DNA of 29,417 nt from an uncultured Anaerolineae bacterium (GTDB lineage Bacteria > Chloroflexota > Anaerolineae > JAFGEY01): contig CAYZYE010000011.1 in assembly GCA_964481205.1 (NCBI GenBank), forward strand, positions 12,788 to 42,204, written 5' to 3'. Shown piece after piece: positions 7,705-19,978 of the stretch (the stretch's first letter is position 1; every line of letters starts with the position of its first letter). The notes below the pieces were generated by a model, which was given only the letters and a program-made list of their open reading frames with translations, did no database searches and was not told the origin of the DNA. Position numbers and translations under genes: made by a program.

Positions 7705-9024
7705 TCAACGTGATTTTTTTCGTCCGTGGCAGTTTTTGTATTTTTTGCCACTGCCGCATGGACAAGGGGCGTTGCGTGGCACGGCGGCGTACTGTTTGGC
7801 CGCCGCCTCGTCTTGTTGAGCCAGATAAAGCATAATGTTGGACGGCGGTCGCTGCATGCGCAACTCTCGCGCCATAAAGCGCATCGCCTCGTCGATGTGA
7901 TGGAAAAAGGCCTTGTACCCCGCGCACAAATGGCTGACTCTCGGCTCGCCCGGCGCAGGGTGAATGATCCGGTTTTTGGGACACGCGCCGTTGCAAACAA
8001 AGCGCACGTCGCAATCCAGGCATTGCTGCGGCAGGGCGTCGCGTTTGGCCAGACCAAAACGCCGCTGTTCCGGCGATCCGACCATCTCGGCGACCGTTTT
8101 TTCCATAATGTTGCCGCGCCGGTAGCGTGGTTCGACAAAGTGGTCGCAGGCATAGAGGTCGCCATTGTGTTCCAGCACCAGGGCCAGCCCGCACACCTGG
8201 TCAAAGACGCACAGGCCGGGACGCTGCCCCAGCCACGCGGCCAGCGCGACATCAAAGATTTGCACAAACATCGTTCCAACATCGTGGCGCACCCACTCGT
8301 CAAAGATGGCGATCAAAAACTCGCCATACTGTTGCCCCGTCACCGAGCGCGCGGTGAGCCGTTCGCCTTCTTGAAAGCCGGTGTCATTGTCCCGCTCGAC
8401 AATGGGGATGAATTGCACAAACCGCGTCTCGTTGCGTATAAAGCGGTACACCTCTAGCGGATGTTCGACGTTGGCGGCGTGGACGGTGGTCAGAATATTG
8501 TATTCGACGTTGTGTTTTTGCAACAGTCGCAGCCCGCGCATCACCCGCGCGTGCGTCGCTCCGCCCGCTTTGTCCCGGCGAAAGGCATCATGCTGCGCCG
8601 GCGGCCCGTCGATGCTGAGGCCGATCAAAAAATTGTGTTCGTGCAAAAACTGGCACCACTCGTCGGTAAGAGTGGTGCCGTTGGTTTGCAGCGCGTTGAC
8701 GATGCGCATACCCGGCCTGGCGTATTTTTCTTGCAGCGCAACAGCCTTGCGGAAAAAATCCAGGCCGCGCAGCGTCGGCTCGCCTCCCTGCCAGCCAAAA
8801 GTCACTTCGGGCGCGCGTTGGGCCTCGATGTACTGGCGGGTAAACGTTTCCAGCATCTCTTCCGTCATCCAAAACGGGTCATCCTCCTGATAGAGGTTTT
8901 CCTTGCTCAGGTAATAACAATATTGGCAATTCAGGTTGCAAATTGGCCCGCGCGGTTTGACCATAATGTGAAACGAGGGCGGGCAACTGGCGTGTGGATC
9001 GGACATTGGTATTTTGCTTTCCAT
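7705..9024 (-). CDS. Anaerobic sulfatase-maturating enzyme (radical SAM, SPASM domain) with C-terminal SEC-C zinc-binding motif
   Basis: N-terminal FHIMVKPRGPICNLNCQYCYY (CxxxCxxC radical-SAM cluster) and C-terminal Cys clusters (CDHF...CLDCDVRFVCNGACP) match anSME. The tail CPCGSGKKYKNCHG is a SEC-C motif. The track start at 9096 lacks an RBS; the ATG at 9024 (MESKIP) or 9006 is more likely. Confidence 0.85.
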   Translation of the reverse strand: MESKIPMSDPHASCPPSFHIMVKPRGPICNLNCQYCYYLSKENLYQEDDPFWMTEEMLETFTRQYIEAQRAPEVTFGWQGGEPTLRGLDFFRKAVALQEKYARPGMRIVNALQTNGTTLTDEWCQFLHEHNFLIGLSIDGPPAQHDAFRRDKAGGATHARVMRGLRLLQKHNVEYNILTTVHAANVEHPLEVYRFIRNETRFVQFIPIVERDNDTGFQEGERLTARSVTGQQYGEFLIAIFDEWVRHDVGTMFVQIFDVALAAWLGQRPGLCVFDQVCGLALVLEHNGDLYACDHFVEPRYRRGNIMEKTVAEMVGSPEQRRFGLAKRDALPQQCLDCDVRFVCNGACPKNRIIHPAPGEPRVSHLCAGYKAFFHHIDEAMRFMARELRMQRPPSNIMLYLAQQDEAAAKQYAAVPRNAPCPCGSGKKYKNCHGRKKSR

Positions 9025-9131
9025 GTGATCTGTTGACGGACTTGCACTAACTCGTAGCCTCTTTGCCTGCTCTGTGAATCTCGGTGTAAGAAGCAAATGT
9101 GTCCGATAGTGAAACGGACTGGAAAAGCTCT

Positions 9132-9163: not shown

Positions 9164-10744
9164 TCACTCTGATGTTTGCATCTCGCTCAAAACCTGCCGC
9201 ACCACCGCGCGCGGCGCTCCATCGACGATCTCGACCTCGCCGATCCTTTTGGGCAGAATCCAGCGCAGCGTTTTGCCCCGCTTTTTCTTGTCGCGCTGCA
9301 TGGCCTGCCAAATTGCGTCCGCAGCAAAGGGGATACGCGCAGCGGGCAAATGATGTCGCTCCAAAACGGCGGCGATCTGCTCCGGCAGCGATCGATCGGC
9401 GATGCCCATTGCCGCCGCGATTTTGGCCGCTGCGACCAGGCCAGTGCTCACCGCCTCGCCGTGACGGATCGTAAAGTTGCTCAATTGTTCGATGGCGTGC
9501 GCCGTGGTGTGCCCCAGGTTGAGAACCACTCGCCGCCCGCGCTCAAACGGGTCTTGCTCGACCACGTCGATCTTGACTTGCAGCGAACGGGCGATCCAGC
9601 GCGACCACACGTTCTGGTCATCGCTCCTGCCTGGGGTGTGACGCGCCAATTCCTCAAACAATTCGCCGTCGGCCAGCACGCCGTGTTTGATCAGCTCCGC
9701 CATCCCCGAAGCGATCTCGGATTGCGGCAGCGTTTGCAGCACGCCGGGATCGATGACCACCAGACTGGGTTGCTTGAACGCCCCAACCAGGTTTTTGCCC
9801 TGCGGCAGATCGACGGCCGTCTTGCCGCCCACGCCGGCATCGACCATCGCCAGCAGCGATGTGGGCGTCTGGACGACGGGCAGACCGCGCATAAACGTCG
9901 CCGCGGCAAACCCGGCCACATCACAAGTCACGCCGCCGCCCAGCGCCAATACCGCGCCGCGTCGATCCAACCCACCGGCGATAAATTGATCGTATAATGA
10001 CGCCAATGTGTCCAGTGTTTTGTATTGTTCACCATCGGGCATGGTACAGAGAAAAGGGGATAGCCCTGCCGGGCGCAGTGCATCGAGCACGCGGTTTTGG
10101 TACAATGCGCCCACGGTCGGATTCGTGACCACGGCGATGACGCCGGTCTCGCTGATCGGCCCGGCCAGGGCGCCGAGCTTTTCCAACAGGCCCATACCGA
10201 TGTGGATGGCATAGCGTCCACCCGGATGGCGCACCGGAAGCAGGATCGAAAAGGCCTGCTCGATGATCCGCGTCGCCACCTCGCCGACGGTCAGGCGCGT
10301 GGTGTCGATCTGGCGGGGGATGGCGGCATAAGCGTCCTGGCGCCTGGCCAACAGCCGTTCGATCTCGGCGCGGCGATCGGCCACGTCGAGCAGCGGGCGG
10401 TCTTGGGCCAGCGCCAGGCGTTGCAAAATGACATCCACACCGGCGGTGAGGCAAAAGACGGGACCGGAGGTCATCATCCGCCGGCGGTTGGTTTCGTCGA
10501 TCAGCGCGCCGCCGCCGGTGGCGATCACCAGACCGTCGCGACGGCTCAATTCGCGGCAGATTTCCCCCTCGAGTCGTCGAAAGGCCACTTCGCCATCTCC
10601 GGCAAAGATGCGCGAGATTGTTTTGCCGGCCCGTTTTTCGATCTCGTCGTCGATATCGACAAAAGGCCGCTCCAGTCGCCGCGCCACCTCGCGTCCGGCG
10701 CGGCTTTTGCCGGCGCCCATAAAGCCGGTCAGAATAATGTTCAT
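9164..10744 (-). CDS. aroKB: Bifunctional shikimate kinase / 3-dehydroquinate synthase (AroK-AroB fusion)
   Basis: N-terminal P-loop ILTGFMGAGKS with shikimate-kinase lid residues. The C-terminal ~360 aa carry DHQS motifs (GGGVTCDVAGFAAATFMRG, GHTTAHAIE). The start overlaps the aroC stop (ATGA, 10741-10744). Confidence 0.9.
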   Translation of the reverse strand: MNIILTGFMGAGKSRAGREVARRLERPFVDIDDEIEKRAGKTISRIFAGDGEVAFRRLEGEICRELSRRDGLVIATGGGALIDETNRRRMMTSGPVFCLTAGVDVILQRLALAQDRPLLDVADRRAEIERLLARRQDAYAAIPRQIDTTRLTVGEVATRIIEQAFSILLPVRHPGGRYAIHIGMGLLEKLGALAGPISETGVIAVVTNPTVGALYQNRVLDALRPAGLSPFLCTMPDGEQYKTLDTLASLYDQFIAGGLDRRGAVLALGGGVTCDVAGFAAATFMRGLPVVQTPTSLLAMVDAGVGGKTAVDLPQGKNLVGAFKQPSLVVIDPGVLQTLPQSEIASGMAELIKHGVLADGELFEELARHTPGRSDDQNVWSRWIARSLQVKIDVVEQDPFERGRRVVLNLGHTTAHAIEQLSNFTIRHGEAVSTGLVAAAKIAAAMGIADRSLPEQIAAVLERHHLPAARIPFAADAIWQAMQRDKKKRGKTLRWILPKRIGEVEIVDGAPRAVVRQVLSEMQTSE

Positions 10745-11856
10745 CGTTTCATCTCGGCGATGCTGTCGCCCCCCAGTTTTTCGACCAGTGCATCGGCCAG
10801 CGCCCAGGCGACCATCGCCTCACCGACGATCGAGGCTGCGGGCACGGCGCAGACATCGGAACGCTGGTACTGCGTCATCGCCGGCCTGCCCGTCGCCAGA
10901 TCGACCGAATGGCGCGGGGTGATCGTGGTCGGGATCGGTTTCATCGCCGCGCGGAGGACGATCGGCTGACCGTTGCTCATACCTCCTTCGATACCGCCGG
11001 CGCGGTTTGATGTTCGACTCGCCCTTGGCCCAAACTCGTCGTGAACCTGCGTGCCGGATAATTTGGCGTTTTCAAATGCCGGGCCGATCTCGACGCCCTT
11101 GATCGCCGGGATGCTGATCAGCGCCATCGCCAGCCGCGCGTCGAGCCGCCGATCCCACTGCGCGTGGCTGCCCAGGCCGATGGGCGCGTCTTGAACGACG
11201 ACCACGATCACACCGCCCAGCGAGTCGCCGTCTTTTTTGGCCCGGTCGATGACGGCGCGCATTTGCGCCGCTGCAATCTCGTCGGGACAGCGCACATCGC
11301 TCTGTTCGGCCAGGCTGTGCAGGCCGGCGGGCGGCAAATCGGGGATGTTGGCCGTCACGCCGCCGATTTCCAACACATAACTCTGTACCGATATGTTAAA
11401 CTGCGCCAACAGCGCTTTGGCGACGGCGCCAACGGCCACTCGCGCCGCCGTCTCGCGCGCGCTGGCCCGCTCCAAGATCGGGCGCGCGTCGTCGAGGCCG
11501 TATTTGACCATCCCGGCGTAATCGGCGTGTCCGGGGCGGGGCACGGTGAGTCTGGGCAATTCGTCGCTGCCGGTGCCCGCCGCCCAGCGATCTTGCCAGT
11601 TGGCCCAGTCGCGGTTGTCGATGCGCAGCGTGAGCGGCGCGCCGATCGTTTTCCCATCGATCACGCCGCTGAGAACGTGTACCGTGTCCCGTTCGATTTT
11701 CATCCTGCCGCCGCGCCCGTAACCTCCTTGTCGCCGCGCCAGGTCGCGGTTGATCGCGCTTACATCGATCGCCAATCCGGCGGGCAGCCCCTCGACGATC
11801 GCCGTCAGGCACGGGCCGTGCGATTCGCCGGCGGTGAGAAAACAAAGTTTGGTCAT
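10741..11856 (-). CDS. aroC: Chorismate synthase
   Basis: Signature N-terminus FLTAGESHGPCLTAIVEGLPAG and GGRMKIERDT. The ATG at 11856 (MTKL) is preceded by GAGGAT. The track ORF extends to 11943 without an RBS. Confidence 0.9.
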   Translation of the reverse strand: MTKLCFLTAGESHGPCLTAIVEGLPAGLAIDVSAINRDLARRQGGYGRGGRMKIERDTVHVLSGVIDGKTIGAPLTLRIDNRDWANWQDRWAAGTGSDELPRLTVPRPGHADYAGMVKYGLDDARPILERASARETAARVAVGAVAKALLAQFNISVQSYVLEIGGVTANIPDLPPAGLHSLAEQSDVRCPDEIAAAQMRAVIDRAKKDGDSLGGVIVVVVQDAPIGLGSHAQWDRRLDARLAMALISIPAIKGVEIGPAFENAKLSGTQVHDEFGPRASRTSNRAGGIEGGMSNGQPIVLRAAMKPIPTTITPRHSVDLATGRPAMTQYQRSDVCAVPAASIVGEAMVAWALADALVEKLGGDSIAEMKR

Positions 11857-11879
11857 AAAATATCCTCTACATATCAGGT

Positions 11880-12752
11880 TTACGATAAAACGCGCTCGCA
11901 CGCTTTTCTCATTACCTCTTGGGGGGGGCGCCGTCCGGTCCACAGCTCAAATGACAGTGCGCCCTGGGCAACGAGCATCCCCAGCCCGGCGATGCCGAGT
12001 GCGCCGGCCTGGCGCGCCTGGTGGAGCAGTCTGGTTTCCAGCGGGCGATAGACCAGGTCATAGACAACGAGATGCGCAGGAATGGGTTGCTGATCCGGCC
12101 AGATTGAAGCGTCGATCCGGGGCCACATGCCCAGCACAGTCGCGTTGACCAGCAGGTCGGCCTGGCGGGATTGCTCGATCAACGCTTCGGGCGTCAGCGC
12201 GCCGGCGCCCAAGTCCGTTTGTCGGGCGTGTGTGCTCAAATCGGCCACGAGAGCGTCGGCGCGGGCAGGGGTGCGATTGAGCACGGTCACACTCGACGCC
12301 CCGGCCGCGCACAGGCTGTAAACCGCGCCGCGCGCGACGCCCCCGGCGCCGACGATCAGCACTTTTTTGCCCTGCGGTTCAAAGCCACGTTGGCGCAGCG
12401 GCAGGATGAACCCCGGCACGTCGGTGTTGTCGCCGCTGATGGTGCAGGCCTCTTTTTCACGCTTGAAAATCAAGGTGTTGACCGCGCCGAGATGCCGCAC
12501 GTGCTCTGCAAGATCATCCAGAAAGGGGATCACGGCCTCTTTGTGCGGTACGGTGACATTGCAGCCGTAAAAGCCAAGCGCCTCGAGTCCCTCAATCGCT
12601 GCCTTGACCCGGCCCGGCGGCACCGGACAGGCGACGTAACGCCAGTTGAGGCCCAGCGCGTCAAAGGCGGCGTTGTGCATTTGCGGCGAGAGGCTGTGCG
12701 CAATCGGCCAACCGATCACACCGACAAGTTTGGTTTGGGAGTCGATGAGCAT
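11880..12752 (-). CDS. aroE: Shikimate dehydrogenase
   Basis: N-terminus VIGWPIAHSLSPQMHNAAF and the Rossmann motif GAGGVARG. AAAGGA RBS upstream. Confidence 0.9.
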   Translation of the reverse strand: MLIDSQTKLVGVIGWPIAHSLSPQMHNAAFDALGLNWRYVACPVPPGRVKAAIEGLEALGFYGCNVTVPHKEAVIPFLDDLAEHVRHLGAVNTLIFKREKEACTISGDNTDVPGFILPLRQRGFEPQGKKVLIVGAGGVARGAVYSLCAAGASSVTVLNRTPARADALVADLSTHARQTDLGAGALTPEALIEQSRQADLLVNATVLGMWPRIDASIWPDQQPIPAHLVVYDLVYRPLETRLLHQARQAGALGIAGLGMLVAQGALSFELWTGRRPPQEVMRKACERVLS

Positions 12753-12862
12753 AAAATATCCTTTGCCCGCTTGATCTGCTCGTCGCCAAAGTCGATGCCC
12801 TGCATCAAAATCGCCATTTGCGCATCTATGGATTTCATTGATATTCGCTCCTAATTCTTGAT

Positions 12863-14209
12863 CTATCCTACAGACATTACATTGCGTATCACGTATTCAA
12901 ATCCCGGAAAGGAATCGTCGATACAATCTGTATTTTGCACGACAGTCTCTCCGGCGGCGATCAGCCCGGCGACGGCCAACGCCATGGCCAGGCGGTGGTC
13001 GCCGTGGCTGTCGACGACCGCGCCTTGCAGCGGCGTTGGCCCGTGGACGACAAAGCCATCTGCTTGCGGTTCAATGTCCGCGCCCAGTTTGCGCAGCTCG
13101 TCAACCACCGTGGCGATGCGATCTGTCTCTTTGACGCGCAGCTCGCGCGCGTCGCGGACGATCGTCCGTCCTTGGGCCTGCGTGGCGGCGACGGCCAGAA
13201 TCGGGAATTCGTCGATCATGCGCACAACCATAGCGCCGCGTACAATCATAGCGGCGCCGATTTCCGCGCCTTTGAGCGGCGAGGTGCGAACGGTCACGTC
13301 GGCCACCGGCTCATTGCCCTGTTCTCGTTTGTTCGACAAGGTGATCCCGGCGCCCATCGCGCGCAAAACGTCGAGCAAGCCGGTACGGGTGGGGTTGACC
13401 CCGACGTCCGTGATCGTCACGTTCGAGTTGGGCGCCAGCAGCCCGGCAACCAACAGAAACGCCGCCGAGGAAAAGTCGCCAGGGATGTCGAGGTCGAGTG
13501 GTTCGAGATGATCGATCAGGGACGGGGTGAGGGTGATGGTCAGACCATCGACCGTGAGCGCATGTTCGGGTGGGCGTCGGGTGGGCGACGACCTGGGATT
13601 GGCGATTTGCGACTGGAGCATCCTTTCCGTGTGGTCGCGCGCCGGGCCGCATTGGCGCACCGTCGTTGGGCCATCGGCATAGAGGCCGGCCAGCAGCAGC
13701 GCCGATTTGACCTGCGCGCTGGCGACGTCGAGCGTGTGAACGCCGCCGTGCAGCGGCGCGCTATGGATGGTCAGCGGCGCGTACCCTTGTTGGTCATCGA
13801 TCTGCGCACCCATCTGTCGCAGCGGCCCGGTGATGCGGCGCATTGGGCGGCCGAGGAGCTGCGGATCGCCGGTCAGCGTGCAGCCGAACGGCTGGCCGGC
13901 CAAAATGCCCGCCAACAGACGCATTGTCGTCCCGGAGCGCGCGCAATTCAGCGGTTTTTCCGGCTTTTGCAATCCTGACCCGCAAATGGTCAGTGTAGTT
14001 TCGTCGCGCCGCTCGATCTCGACGCCCAGCGCGCGCAGGACGTTCAATGTGGCCAGGCAGTCGCCGGAGGGCAAGAAATTGCGGATGTGGCTTTTTCCTT
14101 CGGCCAGCGCGCCGAGCATCAACGCGCGGTGCGAGATCGACTTGTCGCCGGGGACGGCAATGACGCCGCGCAGCCGACTTGTTTGATGAATTTTTAACGT
14201 GTTCATCAA
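12863..14209 (-). CDS. aroA: 3-phosphoshikimate 1-carboxyvinyltransferase (EPSP synthase)
   Basis: 448-aa ORF with the family N-terminus (VPGDKSISHRALMLGALAEG) and conserved internal motifs. AAGGAAC RBS. Confidence 0.9.
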   Translation of the reverse strand: MMNTLKIHQTSRLRGVIAVPGDKSISHRALMLGALAEGKSHIRNFLPSGDCLATLNVLRALGVEIERRDETTLTICGSGLQKPEKPLNCARSGTTMRLLAGILAGQPFGCTLTGDPQLLGRPMRRITGPLRQMGAQIDDQQGYAPLTIHSAPLHGGVHTLDVASAQVKSALLLAGLYADGPTTVRQCGPARDHTERMLQSQIANPRSSPTRRPPEHALTVDGLTITLTPSLIDHLEPLDLDIPGDFSSAAFLLVAGLLAPNSNVTITDVGVNPTRTGLLDVLRAMGAGITLSNKREQGNEPVADVTVRTSPLKGAEIGAAMIVRGAMVVRMIDEFPILAVAATQAQGRTIVRDARELRVKETDRIATVVDELRKLGADIEPQADGFVVHGPTPLQGAVVDSHGDHRLAMALAVAGLIAAGETVVQNTDCIDDSFPGFEYVIRNVMSVG

Positions 14210-14243
14210 TTGGGTTCCTTATTTTGTGATCATTGCTGGTTTT

Positions 14244-14272
14244 CTCGTTCCTACGCTCTGCATAGGAACGAG
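14244..14272 (-). other. Perfect 10-bp stem / 9-nt loop hairpin (CTCGTTCCTA...TAGGAACGAG) in the tyrA-aroA intercistronic gap; not followed by a U-tract
   Basis: Inverted repeat read directly. It lies inside the operon, so an RNA processing, stability or translational role is inferred. Confidence 0.4.
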
Positions 14273-14296
14273 CAGTATTCATGGAACAGCCCTGGT

Positions 14297-15238
14297 TCAT
14301 GGAAACATTTCTCGCCGCGTCTCGCGGATTTTGGTCAGCACGCGGTCCAGTTTTTCCTCATCGCTTTCGGCGACGAGTTGGGCCAACTGCTGCAAATGCG
14401 CCGCGCACTCGGTCATCGCGTTGACGATTTCGCCCCGGTTGGTGAGCAAGATGTCGAGCATCATGGTCACATCGCTGCCGGCCACGCGCGAGGTGTCGCG
14501 GAATCCGCCGGCGACGATTTTCCAGATCAACGGATCGTTGGAGACTGTGGCGTCGCAGGTTTTGACCAGCGCGCAGGCGAGCATGTAGGGCAGATGGCTG
14601 ACGGCAGCGGTCAAATAGTCCTGTCGCGCCGCTTCGATGACCAATGGACTGGCCCCAACAGCGCGGGCGAGTTGCTGCCCCAACGCCAATGCTTTTTCTG
14701 ACGTGCGCGCCAGGGGCGAGAGGATAAAGGTCCGCCCCTGATACAGCGCCGGCTCGGCGACCTCGATGCCCGACTTTTCTTTGCCGCACATTGGGTGCGC
14801 GCCGAGTACCTGGATATTGGGCGGCAGGTTTGCCATCACCTCGACGATGTTGGCTTTGGTGCTGCCCAAATCCATCAACAGGCAGCCGTCGGGGAGCAGG
14901 GCGGCGATCACGGGCAGCTGGTTGATGATCGCCCGCACCGGTATGGCCAGGACGACCACGTCGGCCTCGCGCACGCCCTCTTTCAGGCTGGATGTGCCCC
15001 GGTCGATCAGAGCGAGTTCGAGTGCCTTTTGCACCGCTTCTTTTCTTCGAGCAATGCCGAGCACCGTTTTGCATTTTCCGCGCAGCGCCCCGGCCAGCGA
15101 TCCGCCCATCAGCCCCAGGCCAATGATGGCGACGGTGGCCTGGGGCAATGACTCAACGCGAATTTGCTTGCCGGTCGCGTTTTGCGCGTGACGCGATGGC
15201 CCCGTCACGCCGGGGGCGAGACCCAGGTTTTGACTCAT
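14297..15238 (-). CDS. tyrA: Prephenate (or arogenate) dehydrogenase
   Basis: Rossmann [15 protein letters not shown] and a conserved catalytic His region (GAHPMCGKE). The ATG at 15238 overlaps the DAHPS stop (ATGA). The track start at 15421 lies in a low-complexity, Arg-rich, non-native-looking extension. Confidence 0.85.
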
Positions 15239-16248
15239 ATCGTTCTCCCCACCGCCCCGGCGACGGCGCGCAGTTCGTCCATCAGCATGGCAAAGCGCTC
15301 TGGCTTGAGCGACTGCCCGCCGTCGGATAACGCTTCTTCTGGCCGGGGATGGACTTCGATGATCAGGCCGTCGGCGCCGGCGGCGACGGCCGCGCGGGCG
15401 ACCGGCGCAACGAGGTTCCATTTGCCGGTGCCGTGGCTGGGATCGACCAGGATGGGCAGGTGGGTCAGTTGCTTGAGCAGCGGTACGGCATTGATGTCGA
15501 GTGTGTTGCGGGTGTACGGCTCAAAGGTGCGAATGCCGCGCTCGCAGAGCATGACCCGGTCGTTGCCGTGCGAGAGAATATATTCGGCCGACATTAGCAG
15601 TTCTTCGATTGTGGACATCATGCCGCGTTTGAGGATCACCGGCTTTTGCGCCGCGCCGACGGCGTGCAGCAAGGCGTAATTTTGCATGTTGCGCGCGCCG
15701 ATCTGTAAAATGTCGGCATAGGTCGAGACGAGCGGCACTTTTTCCGGCGAGATGACTTCGGTGACGACGAGCAGCCCGGTTTCTTTGCGCGCCTCGGCGA
15801 GCAGTTTGAGGCCGTCCAGCCCCAGCCCTTGGAAACTGTAGGGTGATGTGCGCGGTTTGAACGCGCCGCCTCGCAGCACCGTCGCGCCGGCAGCCTGAAC
15901 CGCGCGTGCGGTCTCGATCAACTGTTCTCTGCTCTCGACGGCGCACGGCCCCGCGATGACGACGATCTGCTTGTCGCCGGCGTGGATGCCGTTTAGCCGG
16001 ACGAGGGTGTTCTGGGGCCTAAAGTCCCGGCTGGCCAGTTTGTAGGGGCTGAGGATCGGCACGATTTTGTCGACGCCGTCCATCCGTTCAAACTGCGCTT
16101 TGTCCAGCGGGCGGCCGTCGCCGACGACGCCAATGATCGTCCGTTCCTGGCCGTTCGAGAGGTAGACCTGACGCCCAGAACTTTCGACGCGGGCGACGAC
16201 GTTGGAAATTGCGCGCGCTGAAGCGCGTTTGTGCATGACGATAATCAT
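15235..16248 (-). CDS. aroF: 3-deoxy-7-phosphoheptulonate (DAHP) synthase, type I-beta, with N-terminal regulatory (ferredoxin-like/ACT-like) domain
   Basis: The core ([36 protein letters not shown]) is typical of Thermotoga/Bacillus-type DAHPS. A ~70-aa N-terminal extension is present. Confidence 0.9.
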
Positions 16249-16320
16249 AATTCTGTCAATCCTAGCCTGGATAAACCAGCACGGTTGCCCAACGCCAAGG
16301 TGTCGAGCGGCGGCTTGGGG

Positions 16321-17157
16321 TCATGGTTCGTCATCATGCGGCGTCATTGCCGCCGGGTAAGAGCCGAGCAATTTGACAAAGGAGGATCGACGCAGCAGTC
16401 CCATGATCGCCGCTTCGCATTCGGGGTCTTGCCAATGCCCGTCAAAGTCGAGGTAAAACATGTATTGCCAGGGGCGGTTGCGACGCGGGCGGGATTCGAT
16501 TTTGGTCAGGTTGATGTGCCGCTGTGCAAACTCGCCCAGGCTATCGTACAACGCGCCCGGTTGGTGCCGCGTGGTAAAGACGAGGGACGTTTTGCTGCGC
16601 TGTGAGCGGGGCGGATCGTCCAGCCCAAGCACGAAAAAGCGCGTATAGTTGTATTGAATATCTTGAATATCCTTTTCGAGGATGTCCAATCCGTACAACT
16701 CGGCGGCGAGGGCGCTGGCGATGGCCCCGGTTTCCGCTTCTTGAGTCTGGGCCAGATCGCGTGCGCCGCCGGCGGTGTCGAACACCGGTACGGGGGTCAG
16801 ATCGCGCCGCGCCAGGTGCCGCTCGCACTGGGCCAGGGCTTGCGGGTGCGATTTGACCTGCCGGAGTTCTTGCAGCTTGACGCCTGCCGGCGCGACCAGC
16901 ATGTGCCGCACGCGAAAGATGATTTCGGCGCGCACGCGCAGGTCGTGTTCCATCAACAGTTCGTAAGAATGGACTACCGAGCCGGCGGTCGAGTTTTCGA
17001 TGGGCAGCATTGCGTAATCGGCGTCTCCTTGTTCGACGGCGATGAACAAGTCCTTAAAGGCGTAACAGGGATGGGGGTCTGCGTCGCGGCCAAAGAACTG
17101 GCGGACGGCTTCTTCTGAATAGGCGCCGGCCACACCTTGAAAAGCAACGCGGGTCAT
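16321..17157 (-). CDS. pheA: Prephenate dehydratase (catalytic + ACT domains, no fused chorismate mutase)
   Basis: [17 protein letters not shown] and ESRP motifs, and a C-terminal ACT domain. The ATG at 17157 has a perfect AGGAGG RBS and overlaps the aroH stop (ATGA). The track ORF (to 17559) is an Arg-rich over-extension. Confidence 0.9.
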
Positions 17158-17531
17158 TTTTCCTCCTGGGATACGAGATCGGGGCGCAAAGTGCGCGCGC
17201 GGTTGAGATAGATGTGGCGAATCCGCTCTTGCGGGCAGTCGGTGTTCCAGTGGATGAGCACGCGAATGCACATTGGTAAACTGCCGGGAACGGCCATCTC
17301 TGGCATACACAACAGAGGTACCTGACGCCAGCCCAGCTCGCGCGCGGCGCGGGCCGGGGCAACGGCGTCCAGGTCGGGGGTGACGGTAAAGATGACGCTG
17401 GCCACATCGACCGGCGACAGGGAATTGACGGCGCTGATCCGCTCCAATAACGCTCGCGTCGCCGCGAGAATCGCTTGCGTCTGATTGACGTCGACCGTTG
17501 TTGCGCCTCGAATGCCACGACAAACCATCAT
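17154..17531 (-). CDS. aroH: Monofunctional chorismate mutase, AroH class
   Basis: 125 aa; [13 protein letters not shown]...TPDL...[11 protein letters not shown]...IRHIYL is similar to Bacillus subtilis AroH. GAGGAGG RBS. Confidence 0.85.
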
Positions 17532-17625
17532 TTTTCCTCCTCGATTGTACTGTGTTCACAGAGTGGTTGGGCTTGCAGTTTTTAAAATGTCCCCAACCTT
17601 TTTTTTCTGGAATTGCCTTACCACG

Positions 17626-17666
17626 CCCAAAACAAAAAAGGACGTGGAGCGGGCTGCTCCACGTCC
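17626..17666 (-). terminator. Strong rho-independent terminator (11-bp stem GGACGUGGAGC/GCUCCACGUCC, 5-nt loop, followed on the minus strand by UUUUUUGUUUU)
   Basis: Read directly. It lies 28 nt downstream of the putative leader-peptide stop and ~95 nt upstream of aroH. Confidence 0.8.
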
Positions 17667-17694
17667 AGAGTTGCTTTTTACCCTCGTTTACCGG

Positions 17695-17799
17695 CTAAAC
17701 CAGCGACCTCCCAACGCACAACAACCGCCCCTGTGGTGCGGAATAATACGTAAAGTAAAATTGATTGTTGTGCCCGGTACGCTGTGTATTTTCAATCAT
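17695..17799 (-). CDS. Putative 34-aa aromatic leader peptide MIENTQRTGHNNQFYFTYYSAPQGRLLCVGRSLV (leaderless AUG 7 nt after the -10)
   Basis: Hand-translated from the minus strand. Not in the ORF track (<60 aa). Contains tandem Phe/Tyr codons UUU UAC UUU ACG UAU UAU. It lies between a near-consensus promoter and the terminator, upstream of the Phe/Tyr biosynthesis operon. Confidence 0.45.
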   Translation of the reverse strand: MIENTQRTGHNNQFYFTYYSAPQGRLLCVGRSLV

Positions 17800-17806
17800 G
17801 GGAGCA

Positions 17807-17835
17807 ATGATACCCTGTTTGAGCTATTTTGTCAA
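17807..17835 (-). promoter_or_regulatory. Near-consensus sigma70 promoter TTGACA-N17-TATCAT
   Basis: Hexamers at minus-strand 17835-17830 and 17812-17807. The spacer is exactly 17 nt. Confidence 0.5.
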
Positions 17836-17907
17836 ATTGACCCCGGACGCCGGGAGTATTTCTAGTTCGGCGCAAATGGGTTGGACGTCTGTTGTCCCAC
17901 ACCAACC

Positions 17908-18675
17908 TCAAGTACGGTGCGACAGCAACTGCCCCAGTACGTCGGGATGGTTGGTGATGATGGCGTCCACGCCGATGTCGAGCATGCGGCGCATATCCGG
18001 CTCTTTGTTGACCGTCCAGACGTTGACGCGGTAGCCCTGTTTGTGCGCTTTGCGGACGTATTTGGCGTTGACCAGGCCCAGGCCGGGGTGCAGCGCGGCA
18101 TATTTGACGCCGGCCATTCGCGCCAGGCGGGCGAACAGGTGGGTCTCGACCTGACCGTACAGCAGTCCCAGGGCAATGTTGGGGTTCAGTTTGCGCACGC
18201 GGCGCAGACTGGAGGGGTTGAACGAAGAGATGATCACGCGATCGACGAGGTGGTTGTCCTCGATCAGGCGCACGGTTTCTGCTTCCAGCCCGATGGAACG
18301 GTCGCCTTTTTCAACCTTGATTTCGATGTTGATGAACAGGCGGCGGCCAACGGCGTCGAATACCTGCTGCAAGGTGGGGATGCGCTGCCCGGCGAATTTG
18401 GGATCAAAGCGCCGGCCGGCGTCCAGCGCGCTCAATTCGGCGACCGTCATTTGGCTGACGCGGCCAACGCTGCCGGTGACGGCGTCGACGGTGGCGTCGT
18501 GAATGACGACGACCTCGCCGTCGGCGGCAAGGCGGACGTCGAGTTCGATGCCGTCGGCGCCCATTTCGGCGGCCAGTAGAAATGCGGCCAGGGTGTTTTG
18601 CGGCGCGCGCCCGCTGGCGCCTCGATGGGCGATGTTGAGCGTTCGACCGGCATAGATGTGTTCCAGTGCAAGCAT
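17908..18675 (-). CDS. Glycerophosphodiester phosphodiesterase (GDPD family)
   Basis: NIAHRGASG...ELDVRLAADGEVVVIHD motifs. The ATG at 18675 (GGAG 9 nt upstream) is preferred to the track's TTG at 18690. A 1-nt gap separates it from the preceding gene. Confidence 0.85.
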   Translation of the reverse strand: MLALEHIYAGRTLNIAHRGASGRAPQNTLAAFLLAAEMGADGIELDVRLAADGEVVVIHDATVDAVTGSVGRVSQMTVAELSALDAGRRFDPKFAGQRIPTLQQVFDAVGRRLFINIEIKVEKGDRSIGLEAETVRLIEDNHLVDRVIISSFNPSSLRRVRKLNPNIALGLLYGQVETHLFARLARMAGVKYAALHPGLGLVNAKYVRKAHKQGYRVNVWTVNKEPDMRRMLDIGVDAIITNHPDVLGQLLSHRT

Positions 18676-18676
18676 G

Positions 18677-19978
18677 TCATAGCTCCACAAAGTATGATTC
18701 GCACGCGCGATCGAGCAGTTCTTTGCTCATCACCGGTTTGACGCCGAGGTAGCGTGCGATGTCAATGATTTCGTCCAAAACGTCGCGCGGGTGGCAGGCG
18801 CGCAGTTCGTTGTGACGCTTGTGATAGTATTCTTTGAGCAAATAAACCAGTCCTTGCTCGTCATAGGGCACACGTCGAATCTGGCACATCCGTTTGAAAA
18901 TCTCGCGGTACTCTTGAAAGTTTGGATTGCCGATATGGATTTTGTGCCGGATGCGCCTCAAAAAGGCCTCATCGACCAGGTCTTTTGGCTCCAGGTTGGT
19001 TGAAAAGACAATGAGCACGTCGAAAGGCACTTCGATTTTGCTGCCGGTTTCGAGGGTCAGGTAATCGACCTTGTTCTCCAACGGCACGATCCAACGGTTC
19101 AACAAGTCGCGCGGGCGCACCAACTGCCGGCCAAAGTCGTCGATCAGGAACATGCCGCCGTTGGCTTTGACCTGGAACGGCGCTTCATACGTTTTAGAGG
19201 TGATATTATAGATCAAGTCCAGCGTCTCCAGCGTCAGCTCGCCGCCAACCTGGACCATTGGCCGGTGAATTTTGATCCACCGCCGGTCGAGCGTGCGCGT
19301 TGCGCCTGCCTCGTCGCCGTCGATCGGTTTGTGGCTGACCGGGTCGAACACGTTGATGATTTGGGCGTCTACTTCAATCGCATACGGGATGTAAATGCTG
19401 CCGCGCATCATCAAGGAGCCGATGGCCCGCGCCACCGAGGTTTTTCCATTGCCGGGCGGCCCGAACAAAAAGATGGAACGCCCCGAATTTGCCGCCGGGC
19501 CAATTTGGCCGAACGTTTTTTCGTTCAACACCAGGTGCGAGAGTGCCTTTTCCAGGTCCTGGCTGTGAACCATCACCTGCTGCAACGACTGCAAGTCCAT
19601 CGCGCGGCGGTATTGATCGAGTGTCACCGGGGCCGGCCCGACGTACATGTTGCGTTCAAGCAGCTCGCGGGCTTTGTCGCTTCCTTTTTCCGAGATCGAA
19701 TACTGGTAACTTGATTCGCCGAACCCGCCGGTACCTTTGACCTCGCAAAATTTCTCCCGTTTGAGAAATTCCATCACCTGGTCGATCACGCCGGAAAAAG
19801 GCAGTTTGATCTCGTCGGCGATGTCATAGCCGGAAATGCCCGCGCCTCGATAATACAACATTTTGAGCACGAGGTCGGCGAGAAAGCTCAGGCTCAACCC
19901 CGTTTCTTCGATCGAGCGCACCGTAGACAAGGTGAATTTCTGCCGGGCGGCATGGTTGTTTGCTGTTTGCTGCGTCAT
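18677..19978 (-). CDS. AAA+ family ATPase with ~110-aa N-terminal winged-helix-like domain (function unknown)
   Basis: Walker A FLFGPPGNGKT, Walker B MFLIDDFG, sensor-1 IVFSTN and an Arg-rich sensor-2 region. GGAG RBS. Confidence 0.85.
   Translation of the reverse strand: MTQQTANNHAARQKFTLSTVRSIEETGLSLSFLADLVLKMLYYRGAGISGYDIADEIKLPFSGVIDQVMEFLKREKFCEVKGTGGFGESSYQYSISEKGSDKARELLERNMYVGPAPVTLDQYRRAMDLQSLQQVMVHSQDLEKALSHLVLNEKTFGQIGPAANSGRSIFLFGPPGNGKTSVARAIGSLMMRGSIYIPYAIEVDAQIINVFDPVSHKPIDGDEAGATRTLDRRWIKIHRPMVQVGGELTLETLDLIYNITSKTYEAPFQVKANGGMFLIDDFGRQLVRPRDLLNRWIVPLENKVDYLTLETGSKIEVPFDVLIVFSTNLEPKDLVDEAFLRRIRHKIHIGNPNFQEYREIFKRMCQIRRVPYDEQGLVYLLKEYYHKRHNELRACHPRDVLDEIIDIARYLGVKPVMSKELLDRACESYFVEL

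Follow-up and report, generated by a model that had tools for sequence, protein, structure and literature searches.

The stretch of DNA considered here, referred to throughout as the window, comprises 29,417 nucleotides from an uncultured Anaerolineae bacterium of the phylum Chloroflexota (contig CAYZYE010000011.1 of assembly GCA_964481205.1), and its minus strand carries an operon of eight genes for the synthesis of aromatic amino acids. Ahead of aroH, the first structural gene of the operon, lies a short leader composed of a near-consensus promoter, an open reading frame (ORF) with a dense run of Phe and Tyr codons and an intrinsic terminator. The arrangement of these parts, their recurrence among relatives and the alternative helices that they can form make it very likely, as far as sequence can tell, that the leader is a ribosome-mediated transcription attenuator, which would sense charged tRNA-Phe and tRNA-Tyr and control one large aro operon.

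Anatomy of the leader and its operon

The promoter has a spacer of 17 nt, and its two hexamers agree with the consensus at 11 of 12 positions. A scan of positions 16800-18800 returned it as the sole promoter-like site. The ATG of the leader ORF (17799-17797) starts 7 nt past the -10 hexamer, and the frame, whose translation is MIENTQRTGHNNQFYFTYYSAPQGRLLCVGRSLV, closes with a TAG stop at 17697-17695. Two Phe and three Tyr codons fall within six consecutive codons of this short frame. Given an aromatic share of 5.2% of codons in the neighbouring genes, at least five aromatic codons in six would arise by chance with P ~2e-6 per position, or ~6e-5 over the whole ORF. The terminator follows the leader stop after a gap of 28 nt and has the form GGACGTGGAGC-AGCCC-GCTCCACGTCC; its 11-bp stem includes 8 G-C pairs and is predicted at -21.6 kcal/mol (5' arm 17666-17656, loop 17655-17651, 3' arm 17650-17640). 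From the predicted transcript start to the end of the U-tract the leader measures about 170 nt. All of these features, together with the segments that make up the alternative helices discussed below, are collected in Table 1.

Table 1. Positions in the window of the leader elements and of the operon that follows them
Feature	Position	Strand	Support or remark
-35 hexamer TTGACA	17830..17835	minus	same site TTGACA in 14 of 15 related leaders
-10 hexamer TATCAT	17807..17812	minus	TAtnAT in relatives, spacer 16-17 nt
Leader ORF, 34 codons plus TAG	17695..17799	minus	equivalent ORFs in relatives
Segment 1, GGGCACAACAA, anti-antiterminator partner just 5' of the Phe/Tyr codons	17765..17775	minus	
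Regulatory run UUU UAC UUU ACG UAU UAU (F Y F T Y Y)	17743..17760	minus	
Small hairpin CCGCACC-ACA-GGGGCGG, directly 3' of the aromatic codons	17725..17741	minus	
Segment 2, CGGUUGUUGUGCGUUG, alternative partners segment 1 and the terminator 5' arm plus loop	17712..17727	minus	
Small hairpin GUUUA-GCCGG-UAAAC, holding the leader stop codon	17686..17700	minus	weak; the model does not need it
Intrinsic terminator hairpin (segments 3 and 4)	17640..17666	minus	3 outer pairs compensatory among 15 relatives
Segment 3, terminator 5' arm and loop	17651..17666	minus	
Segment 4, terminator 3' arm	17640..17650	minus	
U-tract TTTTTTGTTTT	17629..17639	minus	
aroH, monofunctional chorismate mutase, first structural gene	17154..17531	minus	TIGR01796, 143.6 bits
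pheA, 3-deoxy-D-arabino-heptulosonate 7-phosphate (DAHP) synthase, tyrA, aroA, aroE, aroC, aroK-aroB fusion	9164..17157	minus	NCBIfam

The aroH gene begins with an ATG at 17531, about 97 nt past the U-tract, and is preceded by a strong Shine-Dalgarno sequence, GAGGAGG. Its eight-gene operon holds pheA, tyrA and almost all of the common pathway, and no minus-strand promoter-like site was found between 17700 and 9164. An initial annotation of this DNA had proposed the promoter, the 34-codon ORF with its six-codon run, the 11-bp terminator 28 nt past the stop, the gene order from aroH to aroKB and the lack of a separate promoter for aroH. Each of these holds, the gene order being borne out by the NCBIfam models; its leader of ~160 nt comes out some 10 nt longer.

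Two small hairpins complete the leader. Relatives likewise have hairpins directly after the aromatic codons, with differing sequences, and at the site of the stop-codon hairpin they show AGGAU...AUCCU.

The spacer between the U-tract and aroH (17628-17532, minus strand) is itself a feature of this locus. It measures about 100 nt, as against only a few tens of nt in most close relatives, and holds an A8 run (~17606-17599) and a hairpin, GGTTGGG-N19-CCCAACC. Two contigs of the same species, L201 and L202, carry an A-to-G change in this spacer hairpin that keeps the pairing as G-U.

Conservation among Chloroflexota

Homologues of its AroH assign the window to Chloroflexota, class Anaerolineae. 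A scan of one genome per species yielded 80 aroH loci for comparison. An nhmmer search with the leader of the window detected homologues immediately ahead of aroH in 12 loci (E 6e-15 to 4e-4), and two further related leaders were added through the conserved terminator motif, giving 14 related genomes. Every one of the 14 leaders contains a short ORF with a Phe/Tyr run, and the promoter, in the form TTGACA-N16/17-TAtnAT, is present in 14 of 15 leaders. The runs of close relatives read WFYFYYFT, NFYSYYYFT, FAYYYFYFS, WFSYYYFYFS and YIYYFTYFT. Two metagenome contigs of the same species have the same leader but for a single synonymous substitution of GCA by GCG. Across the window and the 14 relatives the terminator core CGTGGAGC-N4-6-GCTCCAC does not vary, though their AroH proteins are only 60-72% identical. 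More distant relatives keep the 5' arm CGUGGAGC also in cases in which its AGC has lost the pairing to the 3' arm, a pattern that fits an antiterminator rather than a terminator constraint.

The same arrangement extends well beyond the close family. Distant Chloroflexota (Caldilineaceae, Ardenticatenaceae, Promineifilaceae, Chloroflexales) show it with unrelated sequences, their runs reading, for example, FYFYFFS, YFYFYRYFY and FYFGYFWFGYF, each followed by a strong terminator. When loci were counted as positive on the basis of at least five aromatic codons in eight within 360 nt upstream of aroH, 38 of the 41 Chloroflexota aroH loci qualified, compared with 4 of 37 from other phyla. Alignment of orthologous regions had been proposed as a check in the initial annotation, and it shows the ORF and its aromatic codons to be conserved across these 38 loci. 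The Chloroflexota runs hold 5-7 aromatic codons in eight, and the positive spans combined contain 130 Tyr, 114 Phe and 18 Trp codons. A terminator was identified in 40 loci, and each of these has the ORF stop 20-39 nt ahead of it. Further, promoter, aromatic ORF and terminator accompany aroH across lineages whose upstream genes differ. The parts of the element and their conservation are thus observed directly, in the window as in its relatives.

The use of Trp codons varies within this set. A Trp codon is present in 18 of the 42 aromatic spans (among them those of L002, L007, L030, L035 and L075), often directly before the F/Y run, as in WFYFYYF and DWGYFYFYF; the leader of the window is without one.

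How the leader varies is as informative as what it conserves. Among relatives the aromatic run changes by exchange of F for Y, by synonymous substitution and by position, and it always shares its frame with a start codon and a stop just before the terminator. The segment GCUUYRCG, which lies 3' of the run and is related to segment 2 of the window, occurs in all three frames relative to it (split 7:4:2; it reads R-L-L-H in many leaders) and is therefore conserved as RNA. Judged from these alignments, the leader is a set of regulatory codons selected as codons, joined to a downstream part selected as structure, which is the signature of a leader-peptide attenuator. The leader peptides have no match among Pfam and NCBIfam models. 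By exact look-up, two of the relatives' peptides had been called as genes and left without a name, and the other leader peptides had not been called.

A number of individual loci depart from the common layout. In the Anaerolineae locus L012 (3500-3800) the promoter, the leader ORF (…FFSYYYFAYAS…) and the terminator stand downstream of aroH, before the next aro gene; this relocation past aroH ties the element to the aro operon and not to aroH itself. Two loci on contigs binned as Neomarinimicrobiota and Thermotogae (L008:1500-1782 and L015:1760-2039) carry the same kind of leader (SFGFYYWFSDGF) and a terminator upstream of aroH; either these contigs are mis-binned Chloroflexota, or the element has spread more widely. 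The -35 region of L002 is tandemly duplicated (2745-2800, GATTTGACAAATCAGGC twice), and a longer motif, TTGACAAATC, that reaches past the -35 hexamer is common to several relatives. A fragment of a SAM riboswitch is found at the end of locus L004 (6316-6366), ~3 kb downstream of aroH. Finally, a scan of metagenomes with the pattern CGTGGAGCN{4,6}GCTCCAC returned 120 loci with one family member (L185), the pattern being too unspecific.

Alternative helices and the proposed switch

Central to any attenuator of this class are helices that exclude one another, and the window offers three of nearly equal strength, with isolated energies of -21.3 kcal/mol for 1:2, -21.3 for 2:3 and -21.6 for 3:4. 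A ribosome stalled at the first Phe codon would cover segment 1 with its trailing footprint; in L002 this segment differs by a compensatory change (read by eye). Segment 2, which follows the codons, can pair either with segment 1 or with the terminator, the 2:3 helix joining 17727-17712 with 17668-17651. For 12 of the 13 segment-2 bases in the window, the partner lies in the zone of the stalled ribosome.

The effect of ribosome position was simulated on the window transcript cut before the 3' arm, with the ribosome masking from -15 to +12 nt of the A site. A stall on the aromatic codon at the start, in the middle or at the end of the run leaves segment 2 paired with 7 of the 8 core bases in the 5' arm; with the ribosome at the stop, the 1:2 helix is formed and the 5' arm is free. 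The geometry is in keeping with this outcome. A ribosome on the last Tyr codon reaches to ~17733 and leaves segment 2 free, and one on the stop spans ~17712-17685 and leaves segments 1, 2 and 3 free.

Comparison among relatives bears on the same helices. In the close family the post-codon consensus, GGUUGCUUCACG, has its complement in CGUGGAGC-AACC, the 5' arm of the terminator with its loop. In the 15-sequence alignment the 12-pair 2:3 helix has standard pairs in 90.5% of cells, compared with 35-55% in slid controls, in which the partner was moved by 1-3 columns. The loop bases, which the terminator leaves unconstrained, track segment 2 when the alignment is read by eye: the pairs are mostly UUG-CAA, with CUG-CAG in L004 and GGGUCG-CGACCC in L007, L030, L018 and L005. 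Over 40 loci, the best duplex between the 5' half of the terminator and the post-codon region has a mean z of -2.1 (p <= 0.05 in 25) against shuffles that preserve mononucleotide content only, and it begins 8-23 nt past the last aromatic codon in 38. In a swap test of 13 loci with diverse terminators, the matched sum was -241.8 kcal/mol as against -185.2 ± 7.9 for deranged pairings, and 0 of 7430 were as low. In folds of the transcript short of the terminator, 299 of the 431 bases of segment 2 are paired, 223 of them with an upstream partner, and 179 of these 223 partners lie in the stalled-ribosome zone. The alternative complementarities are thus, like the parts themselves, a matter of observation.

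Taken together, these results suggest the following course of events. Transcription from the strong promoter would start at ~17799, and the leader ORF would be translated while RNA polymerase advances. Were Phe-tRNA or Tyr-tRNA scarce, the ribosome would stall on F-Y-F-T-Y-Y, its footprint covering or separating segment 1 and the small hairpin, and segment 2 would be left free. Free segment 2 could then pair with the emerging 5' arm and loop, so that no terminator would form and transcription would read through into aroH...aroKB. With both amino acids plentiful, the ribosome would continue to the stop and the 1:2 helix would re-pair behind it; the 5' arm, being free, would enter the terminator hairpin, and transcription would end at the U-tract. 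The regulatory logic is apt, in that the operon under control encodes pheA, tyrA and nearly the whole common pathway.

The initial annotation had placed the leader in the trp/phe/his class of attenuators, a view sustained by the conservation of the whole arrangement and by the lineage-specific complementarity of segment 2 to the 5' arm. The folding under a ribosome constraint that it also suggested gave, on the cut transcript, the outcome described above, 2:3 with the ribosome on the F/Y codons and 1:2 with a free 5' arm at the stop. The 1:2/2:3/3:4 arrangement that it had considered plausible also stands, as far as alternative helices exist. However, the antiterminator is not the pairing that it put forward, between the codon segment AAUUUUACUUUAC and GUAAA...GUAAAA, and segment 2 is instead 17727-17712. 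The earlier pairing amounts to -6.2 kcal/mol and its motifs are absent in relatives; moreover, it lies at 17692-17672, wholly outside the terminator, and so no competition is possible.

Several points weigh against an attenuator of this kind and should be set beside the evidence for it. The transcription start, the translation of the ORF, the folding kinetics and the amino-acid response are all predictions drawn from sequence. Taken by itself, the 2:3 duplex of the window is not significantly better than shuffles (z = -1.3, p = 0.09), and it includes several G-U pairs and one G-G mismatch. Among relatives the geometry of 1:2 varies between subfamilies, and the unvarying segment 3 of the close family leaves little strict covariation to be seen in 2:3. 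On the 15-sequence alignment, the column-shuffle control for the 2:3 helix is not significant, and RNAalifold recovers the terminator alone. The latter result is why the alternative helices were tested explicitly; and since the column shuffles gave no significance, segment 3 being invariant, reliance is placed on the slid controls and the swap test. The simple composition-preserving shuffles of the 40-locus duplex test belong among these points as well. Further, the full-length fold at equilibrium always favours the terminator, even with a masked ribosome, and the switch must therefore be kinetic, as it is in the textbook cases. The truncated transcript without a ribosome already has 2:3 in its minimum-energy fold, so that termination without translation would rely on 1:2 forming first. 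Finally, the leader ATG has no Shine-Dalgarno sequence and hence depends on a leaderless start, and leaderless genes are predicted at ~5% in some Chloroflexi (PMC3160421).

The leaderless start deserves separate consideration, as it appears to be a property of the window more than of the family. In the leader of the window no further in-frame start codon is present, and translation from a leaderless ATG, specific to this lineage, is plausible on the sequence. In the relatives where this was read, an A stands at the 7th-8th base past the -10 hexamer; its counterpart in the window opens the ATG, and the position is consistent with a conserved transcription start site. In the close relatives examined the likeliest start codon is 29-69 nt downstream, and a few of them also have an in-frame start 8-17 nt past the -10 hexamer. 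L203, the nearest different species, would have a 5' untranslated region of 29 nt. The window is thus the clearest leaderless case among the close relatives examined, its start being a predicted one.

Other explanations of the leader have to account for the same observations. It could be an RNA switch read by an uncharged tRNA in the manner of a T-box, by a small ligand or by an RNA-binding protein, with the U/A-rich run as the binding site and the ORF incidental. T-boxes are known in Chloroflexi, the leader does have conserved RNA-level segments and alternative structures, and the last two aromatic codons (UAU UUU) are nearly invariant in their nucleotides within the close family. Against these stands the behaviour of the run as a whole, whose reading frame takes in a start codon and a stop 20-39 nt ahead of the terminator in all 40 loci tested, and whose variation (F/Y exchange, U or A at the second position, along with synonymous and positional change) is that of codons and not of a fixed motif. 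A canonical T-box Stem I would also not fit in so short a leader, and neither a specifier nor a T-box sequence was seen in it. At the gathering threshold, no Rfam family, the T-box, Phe_leader and other leader families included, matched the window or 20 related loci. At E <= 10 the window gave only chance-level hits, to the aspC motif and a human long non-coding RNA, and none to the T-box (RF00230). The aspC motif (17.4 bits as against a gathering threshold of 100, E = 7.3) aligns mainly via the terminator tail and was rejected as chance. We regard a switch that dispenses with the ribosome as improbable.

A slightly less probable alternative accepts that the leader ORF senses Phe and Tyr and places the output elsewhere, in aroH translation, in mRNA stability or in Rho-dependent termination within the 100-nt spacer. 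The unusual length and structure of that spacer, much shorter in most close relatives, speak in its favour, as does the terminator that always wins at equilibrium in silico. However, practically all related loci have a canonical G+C-rich hairpin with a U-tract, whose sequence co-varies with that of the segment upstream, and no predicted structure sequesters the Shine-Dalgarno sequence of aroH. An output other than intrinsic termination is not needed to explain the element.

Least credible of all is a constitutive terminator or insulator for the upstream glycerophosphodiesterase gene, accompanied by a chance short ORF and no regulation: that gene ends at 17908 with no clear terminator after it and could use one, but the hairpin sits downstream of a near-consensus promoter facing aroH, the codon run has the small chance probability given above, the promoter, ORF and terminator travel with aroH past differing upstream genes, and in L012 the element has moved before the next aro gene.

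Two candidate readings of the ORFs at the locus were also rejected. A plus-strand ORF of 126 aa (17485-17865) runs stop-free across the leader; with the fixed terminator as reference, relatives have the aromatic run in different frames (9:5:1), so that no single antisense frame could be conserved, and it was rejected as a gene. In many relatives, too, stops are largely absent from the antisense strand, probably as a by-product of constraints on the sense strand. At the other end of the operon, a radical SAM/SPASM protein with a C-terminal SEC-C motif is encoded at 7705-9096 on the minus strand, beginning 68 nt past aroK-aroB, and it may be co-transcribed with the aro operon, as the scan found no terminator-like site between them. 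The leader ORF was considered as a precursor of a ribosomally synthesised and post-translationally modified peptide for this enzyme, and was rejected as such: its C-terminal part is not conserved in frame, and the ORF follows aroH, not the enzyme.

Significance and relation to known attenuators

Leader-peptide attenuation is best known from Proteobacteria and some Actinobacteria. The leader described here would extend it to Chloroflexota, where nearly every sampled aroH locus has the element. No description of aromatic leader-peptide attenuation in Chloroflexi was found in the literature covered, which did not take in subscription journals. Overall, the evidence describes a well-supported attenuator of the classical kind, widespread in the sampled Chloroflexota, that overturns no concept. 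Three modest twists set it apart, namely mixed Phe/Tyr(/Trp) sensing, control of a near-complete pathway and, probably, the leaderless start in this lineage. The fuller proposition, that the window is a member of a widespread and hitherto uncatalogued Chloroflexota family of Phe/Tyr(/Trp) attenuators in which one translated sensor would govern nearly the whole shikimate pathway and the Phe and Tyr branches, the ORF is here leaderless and the terminator loop is used in the antiterminator, is held with some confidence, though with less than attenuation as such.

Several uses follow from this. The element would be a natural sensor of more than one amino acid, with Phe, Tyr and often Trp codons placing a near-complete aromatic pathway under one promoter. 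For annotators it adds a short ORF together with an RNA element, both without a match among the Rfam, Pfam and NCBIfam models searched. The 1:2/2:3/3:4 logic exists in many lineage-specific versions, which are good material on the evolution of attenuators, and the apparently leaderless version in the window would offer a test of whether 70S-type initiation at a 5' AUG couples to transcription fast enough for attenuation.

Among known systems, the leader shares the design of the pheL-pheA, pheM-pheST and trpL/hisL class of E. coli: a short ORF with clustered codons, 1:2, 2:3 and 3:4 helices, a terminator before the first biosynthetic gene and, as in pheL-pheA, control of the terminal-pathway gene pheA. 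It differs from that class in having no similarity to it in sequence or by covariance model (the Rfam leader families do not match), in the mixture of Phe and Tyr codons, often with Trp in relatives, in place of codons for one amino acid, and in controlling nearly the whole shikimate pathway together with the Phe and Tyr branches. The bases of its terminator loop, unlike those of the class, join the antiterminator. Moreover, the stop codon of the window lies downstream of segment 2, so that the replete state probably relies on 1:2 re-forming and not on a ribosome covering segment 2.

The gathering of many pathway genes in one attenuated transcription unit recalls the aromatic supraoperon of B. 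subtilis, controlled by TRAP, and the T-box aromatic genes of Firmicutes. In those systems a protein or an uncharged tRNA is the reader, whereas the window would read a translated leader peptide. For the leaderless start, the nearest parallel is the polycysteine short ORFs of mycobacteria, which are described as leaderless Cys-responsive attenuators, with the ORF at the 5' end of the transcript and stalling that senses an amino acid (bioRxiv 10.1101/834739). The amino acid and the phylum are different, and the leaderless start of the window is a predicted one.

In function, the leader appears most like aroR of Corynebacterium glutamicum, an F-Y-F leader upstream of the aroF (DAHP synthase) operon that, according to a review, responds to Phe and not to Tyr (PMC11802643, citing Neshat et al. 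2014). Both have a mixed Phe-Tyr-Phe motif, and ribosome stalling on aroR, according to the same review, raises transcription of an operon of the common aromatic pathway (PMC11802643). The resemblance is one of function only. The two belong to different phyla, and the Chloroflexota leaders have the longer runs, with 5-7 aromatic codons, and precede the larger operon.

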